Below the pieces are notes generated by a model, which searched no databases, was not told the DNA's origin, and saw nothing but the letters and a program-made list of their open reading frames with translations. A DNA stretch of 64,000 nucleotides, taken from NCBI GenBank assembly GCA_011109175.1, contig RDEW01000006.1:1709038-1773037 (forward strand), in the 5' to 3' direction. A program made the translations under genes and the position numbers. This stretch comes from Dicyema japonicum. Its lineage: Eukaryota > Animalia > Dicyemida. This document shows positions 3,057 to 61,778 of this stretch, piece after piece (within the stretch, counting starts at the first letter, position 1; each line of letters starts with the position of its first letter).

Positions 3057-3290
3057 GTCGGGCATAAAGGCCTGATACTTTGGTTTGATGAGTAACGCCG
3101 CCATTTGTGAAAATTTCACTGCAAAGGTGGATCGTCTATAAAGGACTCACACAAACAAAAAAGAAGTGAAGATCACTCATGAGTTTTCACTCTACAATTA
3201 GATAACATGACTTTTCTTTACTTAAATAAAGTGTGTCCTGTCGGGGTTGAGATATAGGTAATATGGCTCTCGTAATGTGCAGTATGATTT
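3057..3290 (+). mobile_element. tRNA-headed SINE family, 5'-truncated copy
   Basis: Shares the core GAGT(A/G)ACGCC...TTCACTGC...GGATCGTCTA.AAAGGACTC and the tail AATAAAGTGTGTCCTG...ATGGCTCTCGT with copies at 25.4, 29.5, 30.6 and 56.1 kb. Confidence 0.7.
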
Positions 3291-3825
3291 TAATGAGAAC
3301 AAAATATAAGAGATACTAAATCCAAAGTGTATTATCAGAACGGCATATAATCTTCCAAATTGTAAATTAGGAGTATCTGTCTGTTGGTGGCAGAATGGAT
3401 GAGATAGTTGAGTTATAAAGTATGTTATCGAAAAATCAGACAATTGATGATTACGATAATCACAGAAAGTTTCCTTAACTACCCATCATTTTCAGAAAAG
3501 TGCAAAGATTACTTTCAATTGACAAAAAGTCCATTAGTTCATTCTATTCTATATTTCTCCGAATTACCAGAAAAATTATTTTTCCAAGAATGATACTTTG
3601 TATTTACAAGTATTGTTGTGATGATTTAGATATTAGAATAACATGATGTCAATTCAAAAACTAAAAGACATTGATGAATAGTTAAATCAGAAAATAATGA
3701 TTTTCTGAGATGACGTATGATATTTTTGTTGACGTTTAGTAAATTCAGTTATTTTACCATTTTAACAAAACTTGTTTAGTGAAGCCACATAAACTAAGAT
3801 GAAAATTATTCAAAATTTTAGTTAA

Positions 3826-4600
3826 TTAATCTTTATTAAGATTTCGTCTTTCATATTTTCCTTTATAATTACGATATAAAGATCTTTTTCTAGCGTCTTT
3901 AAACCAATCATCAATTTGGAGACGAGTCAATTTAGTCTCCTCCATTAGCTGTAACTTTATCTCTGTAGACGGAAACGGATGCTAAACTGAGCCGCTAAAT
4001 CTTACCTCAGCATTTTCAAGAAGCCATTTCATTAGTATATTGGTAACTTTTAATGAATATGGTCTTCTTTCTAAAAAATATTATAATTTTGACAAAACTT
4101 GGTATTGTCGGAGGTAGTTCAATTTCCTAATTTAATTTATCAAGTAACCTTGTTAAGGTCAGAGTTATCCGAATCTTTGGGCAATAATGAATTTATCTAG
4201 GAATACTCAACTTAATTACTTTTGGCTTAATTTCCTCGATAATATGACTAAGACTGGACTGTTTGAATCTTTCAATAAAATAATTAAGCATCTTGAACTC
4301 AATTAGTTGGCACCACAGAGAGCTAATAGCTGAATTCATCTAAAATTTTAAACATGAGTTACAAGGTCGTCAATTTCAGGTTTACTCTCTTTGACATTCT
4401 CTAAGCTATCGAAGAATAAATTTAATAAATCCGAAAAATCGTCGACATTAAAATTTCCTAAAGTTATCGTATTTATTTTTCGTGCATTTTGCTGAGAACG
4501 TCGAATAAAAAGTGACTAATAAACATTAGACCATGCAAAACTCTTTAATCAGTTTTTTGATTTCTTTATTTTCATTTGTATCACGGTTCTGATCTTCCAT
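3826..4600 (-). CDS. MEIS/PKNOX: Miniature Meis/PKNOX-type TALE homeobox protein, copy 1 (6 micro-introns; one 1-nt deletion in exon 2)
   Basis: Spliced translation gives HFLFDVL, PEIDDL|MNSAISSL (MEINOX/HM domain, like HPLFPLL and PELDNL|MIQAIQVL) and the homeodomain WLLENAE|HPFP...WFKDARKR with TALE spacing. Confidence 0.85.
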
Positions 4601-5839
4601 TATAATATTTATAGACAAATAACTCAAAATAGATATTTCAAATTATGCCCCTTTTTATATGAAGCGCGATTATTTTATACACACGATTATCTCAGAAAGT
4701 CAATGTACACACGCTTTATTAGAATTTTTGAATTTTTCCGATTTCACCAAAAAGATTAGTCTCACACGACCTTCCAGGACGAAATCCCCATTGGTGTGGA
4801 GCAAAAAATTAGTTCCTTTAATATGCCAAGACATACTATTTAAGATAATCCTCTCGATATCTACGAAATAGAGCAGACTATTGGTCTATAGCTCAGAGGT
4901 TCCCTCTCAATATCCTTTGGGACCATCTTTACTATAGATCCCTTTCATAATGGTGGAATAAATTTAAGTTTCGCCTCTACAGTTTCTGTAGAACATCAAA
5001 CAATTCGTCCGGTCCCTCTTTGAACATCGTCCTGTCTCACACGCGTTCGCTCTGCATTCCCTGATTTCGAAATATGGCTAATTTGCGATGATTTACTTTA
5101 TTTTATTAAAAAATTAATTTTCATACGTTTCCAAGATAAAATTCTCACTTTCTATTTATATTTTAGTTACACGATTTTGTTTCTACGAGAACCATCCGAA
5201 GACTCGAATAAAAATACTACACCGGTCCCCTCCTCCAATATACTAATCAGAATCCTCTCTTCCGACTGACATCCTGGTAAACCTGGCTCGTTTAAAATGT
5301 AAGCACCACGTATATAAAGTGGATGATTTAAAATATGTTCTCTGTTCCTTTGCAATTCTCCCAAAAAAGAGATACTCATTTTCATTAAACAAAACTCTCC
5401 ATTCTTCCTCCGCGTAAAAGTTAGATAAAAATATCTCTGCTAGTGTTCAAAACAGCGAATATTTGTTTGGATTTTTATAGATTCATGGATTCTAAGTTTG
5501 GTCGTGTCATCCTGAATACAAGCAGATTCTCGCGAATTCAGCCTTCATAGCTTTCAACATCCATATTACCAGAATATCCTTTGCTACTATTTTAGCAGCT
5601 GGAATAATGGCTGTTGGGTATCACTTGGTGCAATAACTGTCCAATATTTCCTCTCTCTTAAAAATTGAAATAAAAAATTGAGGATAATAAATTTGGCACA
5701 GTTTTATCAAAAAACGTAAAAACGATGAGAAAAATAACATTAACTAAGAATACCGAGTCTTTATGGTTTTTTAGTATGAAATTTGTTCCATTTTATCAAA
5801 AAACATAGTATTTTCTAGAATCTCTATTAATAATTTTTG

Positions 5840-6129: not shown

Positions 6130-6318
6130 ACAATTATGAGACTCTCACATTTGAGGATGCACTTGGGAGTACCAGCAAATCGTGTGATGGAAGAATATTT
6201 AATAAAACAAGGAAGATTATTCCTAGGAGGGTCCCAAGACAACTCTACCTTCCGTGACTTAAAAAAATCTGACCTTAATTGACTTTTTGTTTTTTGTGTT
6301 CTTGGAACTGATAATAAT
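6130..6318 (+). mobile_element. RTE-clade LINE 3' fragment
   Basis: HILRMHLGVPANRVMEEY parallels HILRMDLDVPLNHVIDEY at 18.3 kb; same 3' UTR (CCTTAATTGACTTTT...GATAATAAT). Confidence 0.7.
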
Positions 6319-7229
6319 GTTGAATGGTCTATTTTTAAAAGGGGTAACGGTTGCTGGCTTGACACGTGATTCAATTCGACAAAATTCTAATATGATAGCA
6401 CAAGAAGGGGGTCAACCGCAAGACCCAAAGGAGCAACCTTAAGAGACAATCATAGCCGATGTTCAGGGTTATTTTCTCCCAGATCTATGGAAGACTTTTA
6501 AGGATCCCAAAAAATGGACGTGCGTACAACGACAAGTTTGCTTTGTCAGGTTTCAGTTACTTACTTCATTCACCTCAAACAGGGTTCGACATCGTGTTTT
6601 ACGGACGGAGAGCGACTTGAGAGACCTGCCTCGAACTAACTGCTTAATTCTTCCAATCAGGCTTCCTATTTCTTACTTTGTGAATGAAAAGCCTTTCACG
6701 GAATTTTTTTTAGTCCCAATATCCTTAGTATCCGTTACTTTACGCGTTTCGCTGGAGAGTGTTTGAAAACGAGCAAGTACTATTGTATTCTATGAAATTT
6801 ACTATTTTGTAAATTAATTATTTTGAATTTCAAACACACAGGAATTGATTTACTAGTTCTTTCAATTTTAGACCGAAAAGAACTTTAACTAGAGTTCTGT
6901 GTTATCTGACAATTCATATCTTAAGAATTTAAAGTTTCAACGTCTCCAGACACCATCGCCTCGTTCATCCTCACGGTAAGGAAGACGTAAACTTTCATAT
7001 ATCATGAAGCTAAGTAGTCATTTTTAGATCTATGTCAATTTGAGAAAATCAAATTACCATTTAATATAACCTCCTTAGTGATTTTCTATCTGTTTGGCCG
7101 CGAGTAGTTTACTCTTAGAAGAATCACACCAAATTTTATCCTTGAGAGTGTTTAAACAATAATTTTACTGATTAATTGTTGGGGTGGTTGTCCCGCAGAG
7201 CAATCCTTGTGTAGTATGGCACATAGTGT
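6269..7229 (+). repeat. About 1-kb dispersed direct repeat (second copy 20865-21855) beginning at an RTE 3' UTR
   Basis: Colinear similarity from CTGACCTTAATTGAC to TATGGCACATAGTGT; copy 1 lacks about 30 bp present in copy 2. Confidence 0.9.
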
Positions 7230-9189: not shown

Positions 9190-9840
9190 TATTTTAAAAT
9201 TTTAACAAGTCTCGAGATATTTACATTTTTGATTACATTTTTTTCCATATCTTCATAATTATGTACTTTTTTGATGAATCACTGTTTGACACATTTCCAT
9301 CATGTCTAATAATCACTTGATCTCCCACGTTTATATTGTCCTCATCATATCGCCATTTTCTTTTTTCTTCATTTCCTCGCCTGCATTTTAAAGATTTTCC
9401 AGAATCTTCACATTCTGTGGTTCATCTTCCGAACTTTCATTGTTTTCGTAATTTATTTCTTCTTCTGGGTCGGTTCCGTCGAATGTCATTAATGCGTGTA
9501 TTTCATTTTCGTTTGGTTTTTTAAACACATTTGTCTAAAACAAAGCGGATGTCTTCTCTCATTATGTTGTAGAAACTATTCCTCCACATACTACTAAGTC
9601 TATATAGGGCAAAATGGTTTTTATTATGTTCAGACTTCATAAAGCAGATACAATACCTCAATTATCGTTAATTTCAGTTCCTTATCTTCAACTGCAAATA
9701 ACCGTTATTTTAGGTCATCCTTCAGTAAAAATGCTTTACCGTCTTCAAAAAAAATTTTTCGGTAGTTCTTTTCATCGAAATCGCTGTTTCCTGTTTAATG
9801 AAATTCAATTCCAACAAACTCGTCAGACACGTGTTATTAA
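9190..9840 (-). mobile_element. Internally deleted Ginger-like integrase element (H2C2 region joined to C-terminus; DDE core missing)
   Basis: FEDGKAFLL..LFAVEDKEL..IE|SEHNKNHF and KKRKWRY..VGDQVIIRHDG..VNISR align with the 32.9-34.1 kb element; 22-nt intron at 9635-9656. Confidence 0.75.
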
Positions 9841-9929
9841 AAAATAATTAAAAATATAAGATTATAATAAATTTTATATAAAAATATATTCTACAATGGG
9901 ATAATATTTGTTTTTATAATTTATTTTGC

Positions 9930-12159: not shown

Positions 12160-12296
12160 TGCCACAGTCTGATAAATCGTCACTTACAAAATACAACTAA
12201 ATTGTCTAAATTTAAAAATCCATACATTAATAAATAATAATACACATATCCAGCAGCTAATACGTAGTTTAAAAAATCGAGTTTCAGACTGTGACA
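12160..12296. mobile_element. Candidate MITE with TGTCACAGTC-type TIRs
   Basis: TGCCACAGTCTGATAAATCG ... CGAGTTTCAGACTGTGACA; termini resemble the TIRs of the 32734-34167 element; no TSD seen. Confidence 0.55.
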
Positions 12297-20864: not shown

Positions 20865-21855
20865 CTGACCTTAATTGACTTTTTGTTTTTTGTGTTCTTG
20901 GAAGTAATAATAATGTTGAATGGTCTATTTTTAAAAATGGGTAACGGTTGCTGGCTTGACACGTGATTCAATTTGACAAAATTCTAATATGATAGCACAA
21001 GAAGGAGGTCAACCGCAAGACCCAAAGGAGCAACCTTAGGAGACAATCATAGCCGATGTTCAGGGTTATTTTCTCCAGATCTATGGAAGACTTTCAAGGA
21101 TGCCAAAAAATAGACGTGCGTACAACGACAAGTTTGCCTTGTCGGTTTCAGTTACTTACTTCATTCACCTCAAACAGGGTTCGACCTCGTGTTTTACAGA
21201 CGCACCCATCATGCTGTGTGCAGCATGAAGATCAGGAGAGCGACATGAGAGCCCTGCCTCGGACTAACTGCTTAATTCTTCTAATCAGGCTTCCTATTTC
21301 TTACTTTGTGAATGAGAAGCCTTTCACGGAATTTCTTTTAGTCCCAATATCCTTAGTATCCGTTACTTTACACGTTTCGCTGGAGAGTGTTTGAAAACGA
21401 TCAAGTACTATTGTATTCTATGAAATTTACGATTTTGTAAATTAATTATTTTGATTTTCAAACAATGAGGAAATTATTTACTAGTTCTTTCAATTTTAGA
21501 CCGAAAAGAACTTTAACTACAGTCATGTGTTATCTGACAATTCATATCTTAAAAATTTCAAGTTTCAACGTCTCCAGACTCCATCGCCTCGTTCATCCTC
21601 ACGGTAAGGAAGACGTAAACTTTCATATATCATGAAGCTAAGTAGTCATTTTTAGATCTATGTCAATTTGGGTAAATCAAATTTCCATTTAATATAATTT
21701 CCTTAGTGTTTTTCTATCTGTTTGGCCGCAAGTATTTTACTCTTAGAAGAATCACAAATGTTATGCTTGAGAGTGTTTAAACAATAATTTTACTGATTAA
21801 TTGTTGGGGTGGTTGTCCCGCAGGAGCAATCCTAGTGTTGTATGGCACATAGTGT
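20865..21855 (+). repeat. Second copy of the ~1-kb repeat at 6269-7229
   Basis: Colinear similarity with 6269-7229. Confidence 0.9.
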
Positions 21856-25949: not shown

Positions 25950-27738
25950 GATCATGTAAAAATTATTTATCTTTAATTATTTTTTTAATGGTTTCTTATG
26001 TGTTTTTTTTATTTCCATCGGAGATCTGTATTTCGACAATATTGTGTGAAAATATATTAGTAATTGTTACACTTTCACCATATGGAGACTCAAATTTTTT
26101 AAAGGCTAAAGATGGATTAGTCCCAAAATCTTTCATAACTCTGACCTTTTTTAAAAATATTAATAAATTAGAATTACCTTATCACCAGTTTTAAATAAAT
26201 ATTTAATTGATGTACACTCATTTTTATTCATTTTCTTAAAATATGCTGAATCCAATTTTGGTGGATTGAATTCAAATTGAAATGACGTTTCTTCTAAATC
26301 AATATTATCTAAAAAAAACCTTTTTGCTCTTCTTGATTGGAAACATGACTGTCATCGCAATTTTCATCATTTAGTGATCCTTCACAATCTCAAAAAAATT
26401 ATATTAATCCTATTAAAGCAACCTATATCTGGTTATCCGTACCTCAGTGCTAGTCAAGCACAATAAACCGGACATTGTGGTACACGATAAGGAATCTGGC
26501 CAAGTCCTTATCATAGAAGTTGGCATCACGTCTCAAGACCGTTTGCAGACTGTGGAGGTGGAGAAAAAAGGAAGTATGACTTTCTTGCAAACGAGATGGG
26601 GCGGATGCTTGGTTGCAAGGTCCTCGTTATTCCTATAGTAATGACGTGGGAAGGAATTGCAACAAAGTACCACAAGGGTTATCTGAAGCAGTTGGGGGTA
26701 GATAGGAAGCTCCAGGCCTATCTACAGTCCACTGTGTTAAAGCGGACCCTAGAGAGCTTGACACTGGAGTATAGGAGGCAGAACCCTGAGATGCCATATG
26801 GGCAGAGGGTTCAATTTGACAATGCGCTTTCGGAGTTGTTTCAGCAACCAGAATCGAACCTGCCTGAGGAGGCTGGCGAACAGGCAGGCGAGGAAGGTTG
26901 TTGATCAATAAATATATTAATCTTATTGAAGCAACCTATATCTGTATTAATCTCATCGACTACTGTGTTTTTAATTTAAATACTGTTGAATCCATTAATT
27001 CCTTGATTCTTGTAAAATGGAGTATTGCCTCAAAATAATTTAATTAAAAGTTACCTGTTGATGTATGGGTATACATATTATAATAAACTGCTTCCTTTAT
27101 GTTTTTAGTCCAACACTTATCTTCAGACATCATCTTAGATAGTGATCTTGTGATTGATTAATTGAAGCGTTCGATAATCGCTTGACTCATTGGATTGTTA
27201 AACCTACTATGAATTTGTTGGACGTTGAAGAGGTCACATAATGCTCTTACATAGAAATTTTTAAATTCTGTCCCATTATCCGATTGTAAGAATCGGAATG
27301 GTCCATCATCCAAAAAGATTTCTTCTAGGTTTTTGGCCACTTCATATCCACTCTTATTTTCATATTTCTAGTGAAGGCATATTTAGAATATATCAATTAC
27401 GGTGAGAAGCCATTTGAAAGATTCATTGTTTTAGTTAAACCTTGAATTTATTTAATAACAAAGTATTACCTTTTTAGATCAACCAGGTCTATTTGAAATC
27501 TTTCATTCGGCTGAGAAGCTATAATGTGATTTTCAGGATCCATTTGCATTAGTGGAGTCAAAAAACGACAAATGTTGTTGTCTTTAAGATATAACCTCCC
27601 ATTGATAGATAACAAATTTTTTGACTTTTGAGTTAATCAGTATTTTTTGTCTTGTCATTAGATCGATCACCTTCTCTTCCAATATTTTCATTGTATCATG
27701 ATATTCCTGGGTTGTTTTAACGAAAAACCGATCAGGAA
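25950..27738 (-). mobile_element. Decayed Ginger-like integrase element with 3 micro-introns, interrupted by an R4-like insertion
   Basis: ERFQIDLVDLKR|, TVID, LQSDNGTEF, QAIIERFN, HTST|GNTPF, GDK|VRVMKD; introns 27441-27469, 27029-27054, 26146-26177. Confidence 0.75.
26432..26913 (+). mobile_element. R4-like LINE, 5'-truncated copy with 24-31-bp TSD
   Basis: Matches 11554-12036; ATATTAATC(C/T)TATT(A/G)AAGCAACCTATATCTG at 26401-26431 and 26914-26944. Confidence 0.9.
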
Positions 27739-28216
27739 GGGAATGCAGAGCGAACGTGTATGAGACACGACGATGTACAATGAGGGGCCGAACGTATTGT
27801 TCGATGTTCTACAGAAACTGTTAATGGCAAGGCTTAGGCTTGGATTTATTCCACCATTATGAAAGAGATCTATAGTAAGGATGGTCCCCTACCAGGGATA
27901 CTAGAGGGAACCTCTGAGCTATAGACCAATCAGTCTTGTGTGCTCTACTTAGAAGATAGTAGAGAGGATCATCTCCAAAATCTAAGTTGGCATATTAAAG
28001 GAACTAATTTCTTGCTCCACACCAATGGGGATTTCGACCTGGAAGGTTGTGTAAGACTAATCTTTTTGGTGAAATCGGAAAAATTCAAAAATTCTAATAA
28101 AGCGTGTGTACATTGACTTTCTGAGATAATCGTGTGTATAAAATAATCGCGCTTCATATAAAAAGGGGCATAATTTGAAATATCTAATTTTGAGTTATTT
28201 GTCTATAAATATTATA

Positions 28217-28990
28217 ATGGAAGATCAGAACCGTGATACAAATGAAAATAAAGAAATCAAAAAACTGATTAAAGAGTTTTGCATGGTCTAATGTTTATTA
28301 GTCACTTTTTATTCGACGTTCTCAGCAAAATGCACGAAAAATTAAATACGATAACTTTAGGAAATTTTAATGTCGACGATTTTTCGGATTTATTAAATTT
28401 ATTCTTCGATAGCTTAGAGAATGTCAAAAAGAGTAAACCTGAAATTGACGACCTTGTAACTCATGTTTAAAATTTTAGATGAATTCAGCTATTAGCTCTC
28501 TGTGGTGCCAACTAATTGAGTTCAAGATGCTTAATTATTTTATTGAAAGATTCAAACAGTCCAGTCTTAGTCATTTTATCGAGGAAATTAAGCCAAAAGT
28601 AATTAAGTTGAGTATTCCTAGATAAATTCATTATTGCCCAAAGATTCGGATAACTCTGACCCTAACAAGGTTACTTGATAAATTAAATTAGGAAATCGAA
28701 ATACCTCCGACAATACCAAGTTTTGTCAAAATTATAATATTTTTTAGAAAGAAGACCATATTCATTAAAAGTTACCAATATACTAATGAAATGGCTTCTT
28801 GAAAATGCTGAGGTATATTTAGCGGCTCAGTTTAGCATCCGTTTCCGTCTACAGAGATAAAGTTACAGCTAATGAGGAGACTAAATTGACTCGTCTCCAA
28901 ATTGATGATTGGTTTAAAGACGCTAGAAAAAGATCTTTATATCGTAATTATAAAGGAAAATATGAAAGACGAAATATTAATAAAGATTAA
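28217..28990 (+). CDS. MEIS/PKNOX: Miniature Meis/PKNOX-type TALE homeobox protein, copy 2 (about 210 aa; one 1-nt deletion in the homeodomain)
   Basis: Introns 28276-28301, 28456-28478, 28599-28621, 28670-28691, 28720-28747, 28813-28835 (26/23/23/22/28/23 nt) restore the MEINOX and TALE homeodomain frame. Confidence 0.85.
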
Positions 28991-29509
28991 TTAACTAAAA
29001 TTTTGAATAATTTTCATCTTAGTTTATGTGGCTTCACTAAACAAGTTTTGTTAAAATAATAAAATAACTGAATTTACTAAACGTCAACAGAAAATATCAT
29101 ACGTCATCTCAGAAAATCATTATTTTTTGATTTAACTATTCATCAATGTCTTTTAGTCTTTGAATTGATATCATGTGATTCTAATATCTAAATCATCACA
29201 ACAATACTTGTAAATACAAAGTATCATTCTTGAAAAATAATTTTTCTGGTAATTCGGAGAAATATAGAATAGAATGAACTAATGGACTTTTGGACAATTG
29301 AAAGTAATCTTTGCATTTTTCTGAAAATGATGGGTAGTTAAGAAAACTTTCAGTGATTATCGTAATCATCAATTGTCTGATTTTTCGATAACATACTTTT
29401 TAACTCAATATCTCATCCATTCTGCCACCAACAGACAGATAATCCTAATTTACAATTTGGAAGATGCTGTTCTGATAATACACTTTGGATTTAGTATCTC
29501 TTATATTTT

Positions 29510-29730
29510 GTTCTCATTAATAATCATACTGCACATTACGAGAGCCATATTACCTATATCTCAACCCCGACAGGACACACTTTATTTAAGTAAAGAAAAG
29601 TCATGTTATCTAATTGTAGAGTGAAAACTCATGAGTGATCTTCACTTCTTTTTTGTTGGTGTGAGTGAAATTTTCACAAATGGCGGCGTTACTCATCAAA
29701 CCAAAGTTTCAGGCCTTTATGCCCGAACTC
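29510..29730 (-). mobile_element. tRNA-headed SINE copy (inside the duplication)
   Basis: Counterpart of 3057-3290. Confidence 0.7.
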
Positions 29731-32733: not shown

Positions 32734-34167
32734 TGCACAGTCATACATGCGAGATTCATCACAAAATACAAAAAAAATTTCTTAGTAAAACTTTCATTGG
32801 AAAAAATTATTAAATATATTAAAATTACATATATTACATATTTTTATTTAAAATATTAATTATAAAACATGTATCTAGTGAACCTAACACGCGATACCTT
32901 GGAAAAAATAAGGATCTACTTTGCTACTGGTAAGATCGATAATTGCCCTGACTGTAGAGAACGGGCAAAAATCAAAAATGTGCCGAACAATTCATTTTTA
33001 AAGATTTGAAACCCTACATTATAAAAATGGTATAGAACAGAGATACTTTTGTCTGGAAGAAGCAGAACTTAAAGAAAATACATTGAAGTTTTATATCATC
33101 CAATTTATGCTAGGCTCAACATAATCACTTTGGACGAGATAAATTATATAGTTTATTATCACTTACCCTTTGTGGTGCTACACGTAGACAAGTTAGAACT
33201 GTGGTCTTCAAATGTGTTTATTGTCAGGCATCAAATATAGTAATTTTAGTCAAAACGATTGGTTGCAACTAAACCTGAAATTACGCCAATCATTGCTTAT
33301 GCTCCAAGAGATCGGTACATTGTAGATCTTGTTGATTTACGTCGATATTCTTCTCAAAATGAAAACTATTTTTGGGTAATTAGTTTGCAATATATTTATC
33401 AGATTTGGTTCTTATAGACTCAGTTTCTAAATTTGCTGTTGTTGAAAGTGCCTTCACCAATTCTGGAATTGAGATATCCAGAATTCTAAAGAATATTTTT
33501 TCTCTTATTGGACCGCCTATTATCCTACATACGGATAATGTCAAGGAATTCAAAAATCAGCATATGCAAGAGTTATGCGATAAATTTGCCATTTCGCATG
33601 TTACAGGACGTCCACGAGCTCCTTAGATTCAAGGACAAGTAGAGCGGTTATTGTTTTTTTTATCTCAATAGATTGAACCAATTAAAAGATGTGTTTCTTC
33701 CACGTGTTCATCAAGGAAAATTTTGGAAGTTATATTGACTTCATAAAAAGACATTGTATGGGATAATAGATCAAACCATCACAAGACTGCGCCCTTTGGA
33801 GACTTTCTACAGCGTTGAAAATCTAACAAAGTCAGGTGAAAAGATGAAAAAACGCCGAAGATGGAAATACGGTGAACTGAATTCAGGAGACGAAATTCTA
33901 TTACGTCATGATGGGGATGCCAATGAGGATAATAGGCACCACCCATATGACGAAGTTTCTACAAAAAAGTACCAAGTTGTCAGTAAGAAAGGAGACTGAT
34001 AACTATCGTTGACCAAAACGAAGAAAATAATGAATATAACACAGTCCATATTAGTCGAGCTAAAAAATTGTGACCTTTAAATTTTTTAAGCTGTGTGTTT
34101 ATTAAATTGGATCACTTTTATGATTACTAACATTATGTACGGCGTCTCGCATGTATGGACTGTGACA
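32734..34167 (+). mobile_element. Ginger-like DNA transposon (retroviral-type integrase) with ~23-bp TIRs and 4 micro-introns; ORF 32869-34073, decayed
   Basis: TIRs 32734-32754 and 34145-34167; H..H..C..C zinc domain; IVDLVD / HTDN / QVER triad; introns of 26, 22 (GC-AG), 27 and 25 nt; one TAG at about 33624. Confidence 0.82.
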
Positions 34168-56215: not shown

Positions 56216-56312
56216 GTTAAATCGTTTATCCGCCTAACGATTACAGGGCAGAAAATTAATTGGAGAAACATTAAATTACATATTTAAGCAATCGCAAAAA
56301 TTATGCTTCGAA

Positions 56313-57781
56313 ATGTCTAGAATCTCTACTTTTGTGAGAACTATCAGCAACGGTTGTAACTTGTAACCAACTAGCGCAGCCTCATCAGTCAGAAGTGGAT
56401 ATCCTTTCAGAATCGACTCAGGAGTGGTGGAGAATATCGACAAATACAGCGCCCATAATTATAAACCACAACCAGTTGTCATTAACAAAGGAAAAGGTTG
56501 GTTAATGACACACCTTAGGGTGTTTTGTGTGGGATACCTTTTGGAAAGAAGTACTACGACTTCCTCTGTGGCTACAGCGCCATGAATCAGGGTCACTGCC
56601 ATCCCAGACTCGTCCAAGCTATGATTGACCAAGCTAAAGAGCTCACGTTGTCTTCACGAGCCTTCTATAACAAACCCTTTGAGGCTTACACAGAATATAT
56701 CACAAAGTTGTTTGGATATGACAAGGTTCTGCCCATGAACACTGGTTATATGTGAAGTAACCTTCAGGGGCCGAGGGTGGAGAGACCGCCTGCAAGCTCG
56801 CAAAAAAGTGGGGGTATTACGTCAAAAAGATTCTACCGAATCAAGCAAAAATAATTTACGCCAAAAATAACTTTTGGGGACGAACGATGGCGGCAGTTTC
56901 CTCATCAACTGACCCATCTTGCTATGTTGGGTACGGTCCCTACCTCCCAGGAATAGTTATGGTCGACTATGATGACCTGGAAGCTCTAGATGTTTCTCGA
57001 TTTTTGAATTTCCCATTTAGAGAGCCTGTCAAGACCCCAATGTCTGTGCCTTTATGGTTGAACCAATTCAAGGCGAGGCTGGGATCGTCGTCCCAAAGGA
57101 AGGGTACCTTAAAGGAGTCAGGGAGATCACTAAACGTCACAATGTCCTCTACATCGACGATGAAGTCCAAACTGGCCTTGCAAGAACTGGAAGGTGGATA
57201 GGGGATTAAGTTTAGGCGACTCTGTGTAGATTACGAGGATGTACGACCAGATATTGTGATCCTCGGAAAATCCTTATCTGGAGGACTGCTTCCAGTTAAC
57301 GTATAAGTCATCTCAGATATCCTGTGTCTTAGCAGACGATGAGGTCATGCTTAATATGGAGCCAGGGACACACGGGTCTACGTTTGGTGGAAATCCCTTA
57401 TCCTCAAGAGTAGCTCTAGAAGCTCTGAAGGTGATCATTCTGATTTATTGTCAGGTAATGGAGGAGGAAAAATTATCAGAGCGGGCTGAATATTTGGGGG
57501 ATATATTTAGAAGGGAAGTCAGACAGATCAACTCAAAATACATTGAATGTGTTCGCGGAAAAGGACTTTCAACGGAATCGTAGTCAAAAAAGGGTTGATT
57601 TGTGGGAAATAATGGTTAAGAATACAATGGGGACGATATTTGTCGGAGACTCATGGAAAACGGATTATTGACAAAAACTACCCACGTGGACAGAATTCGC
57701 TTCGCTCCTGCCCTTACTCTTACAGAGGAAGAGCTCTTAGAAGCCACGCAAATCATAAGGGACACATTTGAAAGCTTCTAG
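56313..57781 (+). CDS. OAT: Ornithine aminotransferase (class III PLP enzyme), 8 micro-introns, a few 1-nt indels
   Basis: [21 protein letters not shown]|[52 protein letters not shown]; introns of 22/22/23/29/22/22/24/27 nt. Confidence 0.95.
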
Positions 57782-58339
57782 ACCACAAGCTAACTTTTAC
57801 TCTATCAAAACTAACAAATTTTTATTTAACAAATATCGATAAATCATTAAATCATTAAACTAATTAGAAATGCTGATTATTTCTCTTCACGTGTTTAGTC
57901 GGTTATGGCACTATTAACCTTCAGCAAAGTACCTAGGAAATCGATTTTTAATAAAGGTAACCATGTATACTTTGGAATGGATGTGATTGTGAGAATAACG
58001 CCTATCTAATGAGTTTTCCTCTTCAGGTGCCTATACTTAGTGAGATGTTCTACTGACTACTGGATTAATAATAATTTTGGATTTAGCTATTAATAACAAT
58101 TTGTGGATTTAATTGCTGGTAGGTGTGTCCGAGTGTGGTTTTTTGAATTGATCATGGCTAAAATGTCATTTTCTACTAATTCTCAAAGTGATCTCAGCCT
58201 TAAACATCTATCGAATAATCTTCGAATGCTCAGCCAGTGAACCAACAGCGTTTCTGAAGTGTCTTCTTTTATTTCTGCGGAGGAATTCTATCGGAGTGCA
58301 CTTTTTTAATGCCGATCTGAATTCTTCCGCATGAACCAC

Positions 58340-59750
58340 CCACTCTTTGAATGGGTTTCCTAGCTCATTGCACTGTGTATGCATCCAAGTCTCAGTTCAA
58401 GCTAGGAAGCCCAGGCCATTTCTCACCGTCGCCTTCTTTGAAAGCATACTGGGGACGGATGTGGAGTCTGATTGTATGTGCCTCATGATCTTCCGTCTGA
58501 GAGAATTCACACACTCCACCCTTGTAGAAAGAATGACGAATCTCCAGACAGAACAGGCATATTCAATCGTCGGCGCAATAACTTGAAGATATACTTTGCT
58601 GATGCAAGCAGTAGGAAGGAAGGGGCTCTTCGTACGATGACTTTTAGGACGTTCCATTTTCGAAGACCCTTGATTAACATCTCCGTGTGACTGGGGAACG
58701 TCATCAGAGAGTCGAAAGTTACTCCAAGGATCTTCTGGATTCGTGTATAAGGGATGGGAATGTTTCCGAGGAATATCTCAAGTCCACCTTCAAATCTTCT
58801 GTCCGTAGTAAATAGCTTGAACTGAGACTTGGATGCAGACACAATTAGCAAATTCATATAGCCAGTCACACACGTGGTTAAGGTGTGACTGAACCACCGC
58901 ACAGCCCTGGAGAAAGATTTGTCCCTTGCAGTGATAATCAAGTCGTCTGCATAAGATAAAAACATGGTGTCCTGATCATTGATAGTAGGTAAATCATGTA
59001 GAAATAAGGTAAACAAGAGAGGAGACAGAGGGGAGCCTTGCGGGACCCCATTGGGGAGTAGTCTTGATTTTGAGGTGGTTTTGTCAATCCGGACCCTTCC
59101 GCGCCCAGTTAAGAAGTTTTCCATCCATAGCATGATGCTCGGGTGTAAATTTGAGTTAAAGATCTTTGTTAGAAGAGTTGTTGAAACCGAGTCGAAGGCT
59201 TTCTGTATATCTATAGACACCAGAGCCGTCCGTAAGTGCATCTTCATGTTGAATCCGTCTGTGATGAACTGGGAGATAGATCCCAAATGCGTCGTTATAG
59301 AACGGCCTGATCTAAAGCCATGTTGAAAATCAGGAAATTGTAGAACAGGGGTGATTAACATTAGTACAAGCTTCTCCAACACTTTTGACAAAACGCAAGT
59401 TATGGAGACAGGCGATAAAAAGATGGAATTTCCAAGAATTTTCCAGACTTGAGGATTGGAGTAATCAATGAGTTCTCCCATATGTTTGGTATTGTATGGG
59501 AATTTATAGACTGGTTGTATAGTCTTGATAACACAATATGAGCCTGGGGTCATAGGTGTTTAAGGTGGATAGCACAAACACCGTCGGGGCCATAGGCTCG
59601 GGTTGGTCGTAGAAATTTAATAGTTTTTTCCACGTCGTAAAAAGTGAAGAACGTCGTTATATGGCAACCGTTGTGGATTACCTCGTTTGACATGCAGAGA
59701 TCGAGAGAAGTCCTTGTGGCTGATCGACACATAGTATTTCATGCGTGTCC
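58340..59750 (-). mobile_element. Vingi/Jockey-like LINE RT fragment
   Basis: FQHGFRSGRS, IDIQKAFDSV, GVPQGSPLSP, SYADDL. Confidence 0.88.
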
Positions 59751-61778
59751 ATTCAAAATGGCCTCTAATTAATTTTTTCAGGTTTTGGGTTGTTCAGTAA
59801 TAAACATCACGAGATTTTAGCGAAACGACATCTTTAAGTAAAAAAGTCATTATTTTAAATCTTATAAAAATTGATTTTAAGGGGTCCTATGGGTAAGTGG
59901 AACATTTTACCAAGGTCCTCGATATCTTTAGGTAAAAAAGTCATTTTTTTAATCAAAAAAATTGATTTTAACGGTCCTATGGGTAAGTGGAACATTTTAC
60001 CAAGGTCCTCGACATCTTTGAGTAAAAAAGTCATCTTTTTTAAATCAAATAAAAATTGATTTTAAGGGGTCCTATGGGTAAGTGGAACATTTTACCAAGG
60101 TCCTCGACATCTTTGGGTAAAAAAGTCATTTTTTTAAATCAATTAAAAATTGATTTTAAACGGTCCTATGGGTAAGTGGAACATTTTACCAAGGTGCATA
60201 TTGGAGGTGCTCAGATCGTACTTGTCCTGGATCTGTAAAAATCATTCAATTCAGTGATGAAGCTTGGAGTCTGAAGCAACATAATCATCTTCCAAGGAGT
60301 GAATTTGTCAAGAGAGTCTTAATACGGGAGGACATAAAGCAGAAATCACTCTTATGTGATATGGGTCCTAGACAGATAATAAATAATTCTCTTCTTGGAC
60401 AAAATTTGACTACTATTGCTTTGACAGGAACTCATTCTTCTCTGGAACAACTGATTAATAGAACAAGAAAAAGTATCCCACACGAAAGTGATGATTCAGT
60501 TCTTAATATTGAGGAGAATTTGATGTATATCTTACGAAGGCAGAGAGTCTATCAGTTTGGACACAGTTTTCGCCAAAACATTAGTATATTAATAATTAAC
60601 TTTTCAGATGTCGAGACAAATATGGTTTTTTTTGATTCTGAAATGACGACACCACTAAAAATCATAAAATATGGTCTATTGATGAAACTTTTTCTGTCTA
60701 TTCTTTTCCTTGGGAGCAGTTATTCACAATATCGATAATAATTAATCACCATGTAATTCCAATAATATTCTGTCTTTTAACATCAAAAACTGAAAATAAA
60801 TGACACAATGCTTCAAATAATTAAACGTCTTATTCCGAATTTAAAACCAAGACTTATTGTCTCAGATTTTGAAAAAAAAGCAATAAACTCTTTTCAAAAA
60901 TCAATTTCAAACGCACGGATAAAAATAGGTTAAATGTGATTTAAAATAAAAGATAGACTTGTAAAACTGTTGAAATGCCTTTCCTTTTTTCCTACACATA
61001 TTGTAAAAAACACTTTTGATTGGATAGTGTCGAGATCAGATTTTTCCTGCTATTCTAATCCATTATATCAATATTTTTCGATCAATTAATCAAGAAAATG
61101 GATTAATTCCAAGACTTCCAATTAATTATTGGAATATCTGGATAATTTATATGAGGACTTACCTCGGACAAATAACTCCATGAAGGCTGGCACAACGTTT
61201 ATAGAAGTACATTTGGGACACTAAACAAGACGCCAAGAAATTTTGTAAATAAATTAAGATTACAAAAAAAGAAGGCATAATGATAAAATTTTTAAGATTA
61301 CAAAATGGAGAAAAAATTCTTAGAAAAACTAAATATATCGCTTTATCTGAGAATATATTGAGATTTGTTGAAGAACAAATATTACTTAACATGGATCGTC
61401 TATTAACATTTATAATTATTTTCTTTTTTGAAAATAAATCTTTCAATTTTAAAGTTATATAAAAATATTAAAAAGATGACTTTTTTAGCTAAATATGTCG
61501 AGGACCTTGGTAAAATGTTCCACTTACCCATAGGACCCCTTAAATCAATTTTTATTTGATTTAAAAAGATGACTTTTTTACCTAAAGATCTCGAGGACCT
61601 TGGTAAAATGTTCTACATACCCATAGAACTTCTTAAAATCAATTTTTAAAAGATTTAAATAAATAACTTTTTTTACTTAAAGATGTCATTTCGCTAAAAT
61701 CTCGTGATGTTTATTGCTGAACTAACCCAAAACCTGAAAAAATTAATTGGAGGCCATTTTGAGAGTCAATTTTGAATG
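59750..61778 (+). mobile_element. Mutator-like (MULE) element with long TIRs containing tandem subrepeats; transposase decayed
   Basis: Inverted arms 59750-60195 and 61470-61778; WSIDETF..QLFTI..IPIIFCLL, IVSDFE, RTNN..EGWHN motifs; no TSD found. Confidence 0.82.
59838..60195. repeat. Tandem 90-95-bp subterminal repeat (about 3.8 units; about 2 inverted units at 61470-61690)
   Basis: GGTCCTATGGGTAAGTGGAACATTTTACCAAGGT recurs; unit starts at 59838, 59932, 60022, 60117. Confidence 0.95.

Follow-up and report, generated by a model that had tools for sequence, protein, structure and literature searches.

The stretch of DNA analysed here (64,000 nt, hereafter the window) contains at 32734..34167 what is probably a defective member of a multi-copy family of Ginger2-like DNA transposons, in which four host-type introns of 22-27 nt interrupt the integrase gene, the host likely being a dicyemid. 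The parts of the element are listed in Table 1, together with related sequences in the window.

Table 1. Coordinates of the element, its exons, introns and ends, and of related features in the window
Feature	Position	Strand	Evidence or remark
Ginger2-like DNA transposon, degenerate copy	32734..34167	+	multi-copy in X1, X2, X4; depth drop at right end
Left terminal inverted repeat, damaged, two 1-nt gaps	32734..32754	+	local alignment
Exon 1: N-terminal extension with predicted start, frame broken three times	32869..33087	+	clade N-terminal profile iE 7e-11; collinear with P0272
Intron 1, 26 nt, GT-AG, phase 0	33088..33113	+	exact junction in X5 contig
Exon 2: H2C2 zinc finger	33114..33227	+	Pfam Integrase_H2C2 E 6e-4
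Intron 2, 22 nt, phase 0, here GC-AG	33228..33249	+	22 nt absent from X5 contig
Exon 3: first catalytic Asp codon 33325	33250..33375	+	
Intron 3, 27 nt, GT-AG, phase 0, in frame, stop-free	33376..33402	+	predicted by homology
Exon 4: core domain, second Asp 33534, Glu 33642, stop 33624	33403..33646	+	Pfam rve E 1.8e-11
Intron 4, 25 nt, GT-AG, phase 2	33647..33671	+	predicted by homology
Exon 5: core end and C-terminal SH3-like domain, internal deletion, frame breaks	33672..34073	+	clade C-terminal profile iE 2e-8
Right terminal inverted repeat, 23 bp, TGTNR terminus	34145..34167	-	
Second integrase family, ~40% identical	26000-27750	-	LINE fragment interrupts at 26432-26915
Second family, predicted introns of 29, 26 and 32 nt	27469-27441, 27054-27029, 26177-26146	-	all in AG/G context
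Third integrase fragment, internal deletion	9200-9850	-	predicted 22-nt intron 9656-9635
Candidate intron, 24 nt, in Mutator-like element	60929-60952	+	

The element and its interrupted integrase gene

The two ends of the element form an inverted repeat of about 23 bp. Read inward the right end is TGTCA, and the left end has lost one base. The alignment score of the repeat was matched or exceeded by 11 of 2,984 random window pairs. At this one copy a target-site duplication was not found, the 4-nt flanks being different, and a CCGG/CCGT target duplication is absent from both flanks. At the left end, a LINE fragment terminates 6 nt away. Six sequencing runs cover part of the stretch, none of which is on record as RNA, and five of them were compared in the form of contigs. 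Just past the right end the summed depth of run X1 falls from ~13,000 to 488, whereby depth in the runs is not a copy number, as the tool itself warns. The family is multi-copy, with a single difference in the coding part being common to up to 24 distinct X1 contigs. In the 64-kb window the best blastn match of the element was no better than E 0.27. At 12160-12296 lies a miniature element of 137 bp with ends matching the terminal 10 bases of the element and no visible target duplication.

The earlier sequence-only reading had described a 1.43-kb element bounded by terminal inverted repeats. The inverted ends stand, but the repeat is short and damaged on the left, and the 1.43 kb are likely not the full length, since ~45 codons that are found in relatives are absent near 33800-33815 and several contigs have joins at 33815. 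That removal of the introns restores the integrase frame did not hold: residual frame breaks lie near 32973, 33022, 33074, 33405, 33680, 33810 and 33994, and the stop codon at 33624 is specific to this copy. Other copies in X1, X2 and X4 are unlike this one at five of the seven frame breaks and at the stop, and the copy differences at 33074 and 33405 bring the exons flanking introns 1 and 3 into one frame after removal of the respective intron. With about seven frame breaks, a stop and an internal deletion the copy at 32734..34167 is dead.

The four micro-introns are real, and coordinates, ends and lengths are those given in the earlier reading. The chance of finding such ends, for a fixed length, a slide of seven positions and the element's own composition, is 0.030, 0.045, 0.035 and 0.040 for the single sites and ~2e-6 for splice-type ends at all four. 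When the spliced product, with X at the breaks, was aligned with the uninterrupted 413-aa protein P0272, no large gaps occurred in the first 280 residues. Both the H2C2 finger (His codons at 33120 and 33126, Cys codons at 33213 and 33222) and the DDE core, which had been recognized from the sequence, were recovered with Pfam and the catalytic codons were located. The GC donor of intron 2 proved to be a minority variant: it is present in this copy, but most copies have GT, since T accounts at position 33229 for 17,152 of the 21,539 depth units of X1 and for 872 of the 1,064 of X4. Intron 4 varies by 1 nt in length across copies. Retention of intron 2 or 4 leads to a stop and that of intron 1 (26 nt) to a frameshift, while a retained intron 3 adds nine residues within the core.

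The introns of the element belong to the size class of host-gene introns, as had been noted before, since the ornithine aminotransferase (OAT) gene in the same window (56300-57790, + strand) has seven introns of 22-29 nt. That transposon introns match the size of host introns is expected in itself. Two apparent 1-nt frame breaks in the OAT gene suggest assembly indel errors or decay. The window has a GC content of 37.4% and contains many LINE fragments, with putative class names taken from their motifs. Dicyema japonicum, which lives in the kidneys of Octopus sinensis, has 36.7% GC and a repeat landscape with DNA/Ginger, LINE/CRE, Dong-R4 and Jockey (PMC6736024). Among animals, introns below 30 nt are reported only in myxobolids and Dicyema (PMC13644364), and the ultra-short introns of both likewise measure 22-29 nt, are of the GT..AG type and have minimal splice signals (PMC13644364, PMC6736024).

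Two further pairs of repeats are present in the window. Two copies of ~2 kb (3058-5062 and 27738-29726) in opposite orientation are 95-99% alike and contain an interrupted coding sequence; one of them abuts the second integrase family. The other pair, of ~0.9 kb, lies at 6269-7198 and 20865-21823 and is 92-97% alike.

Class of the transposase

In a HMMER scan 929 proteins matched at E<=0.001, and relatives were drawn from the best 150 of these 929. A word-based protein search with the core exon gave 84 candidates, none of which was a relative, and a scan of viral contigs gave 83 pattern matches and no relative. In the metagenome scan 119 matches were reduced to six loci, of which L001 alone is close; convincing terminal repeats were not found in L001-L003. 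The nearest relatives among the matches listed are stand-alone integrases of 400-480 aa without reverse transcriptase (RT), OTU or Ulp1. None of the 17 members of alignment A1 matched an RT family, and an OTU or Ulp1 domain is found neither in the element nor in any of these 17.

A quick tree was calculated with IQ-TREE from 63 rows, picked by hand from the 120 proteins, out of 181, in which the core was covered, plus read-throughs of window and loci, P0121 and P0122. In this tree the element falls into a starred set of eight rows, which is nested in a starred set of 20 rows, and the deeper branches are unstarred. Gypsy-type rows, three of them with RT-associated domains, lie outside the element's set, as do the rows with Polinton-like domains and those of L002 and L003; a grouping with LTR Gypsy pol, which would have spoken against a transposon, was thus not obtained. 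L002 and L003, which carry motifs of the Ginger2/KRBA2 type, form a separate starred clade in this tree, which contains no named Ginger2 sequence. The core motifs DN-G.EF and G.PR..Q.QG..ER agree, compared by eye with Data S3 of PMC10045372, with the Ginger2 rows and not with DQ-GREF / SAYHPQ of Ginger1. One clade member carries the name KRBA2-like, and KRBA2 is derived from Ginger2 (PMC3575427).

The tail of the protein was compared by profiles. Literal GPY/F and YPYY motifs are absent from the element, and Ginger2 is said to lack GPY/F (PMC2836005). The clade tail profile matches the GPY-bearing domain of P0277 with iE 1.3e-5, and the clade N-terminus gives a weak match (iE 0.0014) to the segment in front of the finger in Gypsy; shuffled controls reached iE 1.2 or worse. 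Long direct repeats around the element were not found.

Ginger2 and TDD elements (PMC2836005) share with the element a stand-alone integrase with H2C2 and DDE, TGTNR termini and inverted ends, and have no OTU or Ulp1. They differ in terminal inverted repeats of 45-297 bp compared to ~23 bp in this decayed copy. Their target-site duplication is 4 bp (5 bp for TDD) at an AT-rich target; the two flanks of this single damaged copy are unlike each other. In addition, the element has a protein of ~410 aa with a tail that is homologous to GPY/F without the literal motif, stands in a clade apart from the KRBA2-type rows and carries four introns of 22-27 nt; Table 2 of PMC2836005 has no intron column for Ginger2. 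Ginger1 is similar in its integrase-type transposase, its 1-4 introns including one GC-AG case and its whole-integrase layout (PMC2836005). However, the element lacks OTU/Ulp1, the literal GPY/F and the CCGG target, and its core motifs are of the Ginger2 type. Polinton/Maverick elements have an integrase without H2C2 in a large multi-gene element, unlike the element with its H2C2 finger and a length of ~1.4-1.6 kb, and in Gypsy LTR elements the integrase is part of a pol polyprotein with RT/RNase H and LTRs, none of which accompanies the element. The protein therefore works like a Ginger2/TDD transposase and not like that of Ginger1 or Gypsy, with a tentative strict membership in Ginger2. The earlier proposal, a DNA transposon family of Ginger type with inverted ends and introns of host size, is supported. 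Microsporidian stand-alone integrases (Dictyocoela KAG0441836 and KAG0442557, Enteropsectra ENBRE01_2627) belong to the same broad group of the tree and are ~30-48% identical to the queries used.

Intron positions and their origin

Intron positions were compared in the numbering of P0272, in which the element is interrupted at 77, 117, 159 and 240. The metagenome locus L001, 49% identical, has predicted introns of 31, 256, 28 and 44 nt at 50, 108, 238 and ~295, and its genomic DNA is continuous at all four sites of the element. The second integrase family of the window has its sites at 148, ~282 and 354, and at 159 and 240 its sequence runs on without interruption. Outside the element, all intron predictions come from sequence and homology alone. 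None of the 11 sites is common to the element, L001 and the second family, with 238 and 240 only 8 nt apart. Since three related lineages carry 11 introns at 11 different positions, micro-introns were likely gained more than once across these lineages. Within L001 the predicted 256-nt intron (L001:950-1205) holds a hairpin with arms of 52 bp, possibly a small inserted element.

On this basis we tentatively propose that dicyemids may now be making new spliceosomal introns of 22-32 nt, and that integrase lineages which arrive intron-less, possibly from microsporidia-like parasites, each acquire their own set at new positions. The introns of the element were likely gained while its lineage lived in hosts with micro-introns, and intron 3 at least has lasted for long enough to be common to the element and a relative that is 59% identical. 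A host which needs little beyond GT, AG and ~22 bases makes the gain of an intron easy. If the proposal is true, multi-copy transposon families supply alleles from before and after the birth of a minimal intron in an animal. The origin of new spliceosomal introns is an open question with few caught cases, and transposon families offer many dated copies for comparison.

In this genome micro-introns seem to be a common trait of DNA transposons and not one peculiar to the family of the element, as the Mutator-like element at 59750-61760 also has a candidate intron (Table 1). This element (+ strand) gives a weak FLYWCH match and has long inverted ends composed of subrepeats of ~94 bp.

Alternatively the introns could be old, so that an intron-rich ancestor underwent differing losses in each lineage and the survivors shrank together with the introns of the host. 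We regard this as unlikely. Shared sites do exist, as intron 3 (159) is common to the element and P0122 and the predicted intron of the third integrase fragment lies at the same codon as intron 1 (77). Ginger1 elements have 0-4 introns, some of them conserved into the host genes Gin-1/Gin-2 (PMC2836005), and in CACTA transposases intron loss dominated (PMC4158355). However, if the introns were old the ancestor must have had 11 of them or more, three lineages must have lost complementary subsets, and the uninterrupted relatives, including proteins from microsporidian genomes, must have lost them all. One microsporidian integrase, P0127, has no insertion at the intron sites of the element where it is aligned. 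The uninterrupted relatives are over-represented because gene callers for contigs report only continuous frames, and some of them may derive from RNA. An AU test (LG+G4, 32 rows, with the group named after a tree was seen) also speaks against old introns, as it rejects joining the second window family with the element (p 0.038). The co-evolution with intron miniaturisation that the sequence-only reading had suggested implies old introns that shrank, whereas the unshared positions fit a gain of already tiny introns equally well or better. The same reading had the element carry micro-introns between sites, which is trivially the case as introns move with the element, but no sign of a donation to host genes was seen.

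Introns in Ginger elements, the presence of Ginger repeats in Dicyema and dicyemid introns of ~25 nt have already been published separately. The passages considered of PMC13644364 and PMC6736024 deal with host genes and repeat classes, with no description of transposase genes that contain micro-introns or of the turnover of such introns. In the literature covered, which left out most subscription journals and Repbase, no report was found of a dicyemid or myxozoan transposase gene, Ginger or other, with micro-introns. The combination of Ginger elements with ~25-nt dicyemid introns and the turnover of their positions were likewise not met there.

Probable splicing of the micro-introns

For junctions between exons the X5 contigs were informative. 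X5 is a separate sample with 11.9 Mb of contigs, on record as 'DNA?', whereas X1 and X4 are DNA-like. One X5 contig with a depth of 15.9 contains the exact junction of exon 1 and exon 2. In a second X5 contig the region of intron 1 is skipped and 22 nt are missing at intron 2 (aligned as 2+20), a gap that has no support in X1 (0 of 28,348 depth) or X4 (0 of 1,481). The X5 depth in the bins over introns 1-4 is 0, 7.2, 1.2 and 0, whereas exon bins between 33054 and 33653 have ~14-61. Another X5 contig departs from the element precisely where exon 2 ends and continues into exon-4-like sequence, by a splice or a deletion.

A clean junction for introns 3 and 4 was not found in the X5 contigs. The sole X5 contig that crosses both comes from a copy that has lost 39 nt over intron 3, and it keeps intron 4, apparently cut to ~15 nt. 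The 39-nt joint was rejected as evidence for splicing, as it is also present in X1, X2 and X4. The ~15-nt intron 4 kept in this contig may hint at a minimum spliceable length.

X5 thus behaves like RNA, from which we infer its nature. Spliced junctions, asked for by the earlier reading as a check, are therefore available for introns 1 and 2, in a run that is not on record as RNA, but not in clean form for introns 3 and 4, which are presumably spliced as well, judged by homology. The host's ordinary spliceosome likely removes all four.

It had further been suggested that splicing gates the expression of the transposase, which would then be held down by intron retention in some cells or stages. 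In the P element the transposase is restrained by intron retention. By analogy, retained introns 1, 2 or 4 would break the frame or introduce a stop here and intron 3 would alter the core, and intron 4 is kept in one X5 contig. However, loss of function upon retention is true of almost any intron, and the contig in question is a copy with other deletions and an apparently shortened intron 4, so that this retention was rejected as evidence for gating. A regulated gate is thus quite improbable, and the introns behave as ordinary host-type introns rather than as a shown regulatory switch.

Even less probable is that the four segments are unspliced insertions in a decayed element and that the gaps in X5 come from DNA of copies without them. 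X5 is indeed not recorded as RNA, the copy is heavily decayed and the 39-nt deletion over intron 3 does exist as DNA. Against this, all four segments have splice-site ends and the size of host introns, copies throughout the DNA-like runs contain them, and the junction at intron 1 is exact. Least credible of all is an integrase remnant of a Gypsy-like LTR retrotransposon, e.g., of the Nosema-type integrases placed near Ginger2 and Polinton in the published tree. The clade profile can indeed be aligned with almost the full length of the Ty3 integrase (profile 14-417), two relatives from Dictyocoela bear the names Gag-Pol or Pro-Pol, and the supplement labels of PMC2836005 have Nosema rows adjacent to TDD and Polinton. 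However, the ends of the element are inverted, introns would be lost by a retrotransposon, and the full-length relatives are stand-alone frames without an RT family.

For a Ginger2-like transposon with spliced micro-introns the following cycle can be envisaged. Transcription of an intact copy would start from a host promoter close to the left end and yield a pre-mRNA, from which U2-type splicing would remove the micro-introns to give a protein of ~410 aa with N-terminal extension, H2C2 finger, DDE core and SH3-like tail. This transposase would recognize the TGT..ACA ends, cut the element out and insert it at another site, with a chemistry presumed from its class. As the element moves as DNA, the introns would be copied along with it.

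Annotation programs for genes and repeats that presuppose longer introns miss micro-intron elements, and two database proteins have features which are what would be expected if unspliced micro-introns entered automatic annotation. The best named match to the integrase exon among the matches listed is P0122, labelled Octopus sinensis, which is 59% identical to the element and has an insertion of nine residues, beginning with Val and ending with Gln, exactly at the column of intron 3. P0014, the best named single-domain OAT match among the best 120 of 7,999, is also labelled Octopus sinensis, with 112 of 144 residues identical, and ends three residues beyond the site of OAT intron 3; no protein named as myxozoan or dicyemid was among these 120. 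The octopus-labelled matches favour a dicyemid over a myxozoan as host, although myxobolids have introns of equal size (PMC13644364), which makes the dicyemid likely rather than proven. P0122, P0141 and P0014, all annotated as Octopus sinensis, may be contamination from the parasite, and such elements may flag parasite contamination in octopus assemblies, as suggested by P0122 and P0014. P0122 and P0141 come from contigs which are both 1,293,439 long, and the micro-intron-like insertion is present in one of the two proteins and absent from the other.
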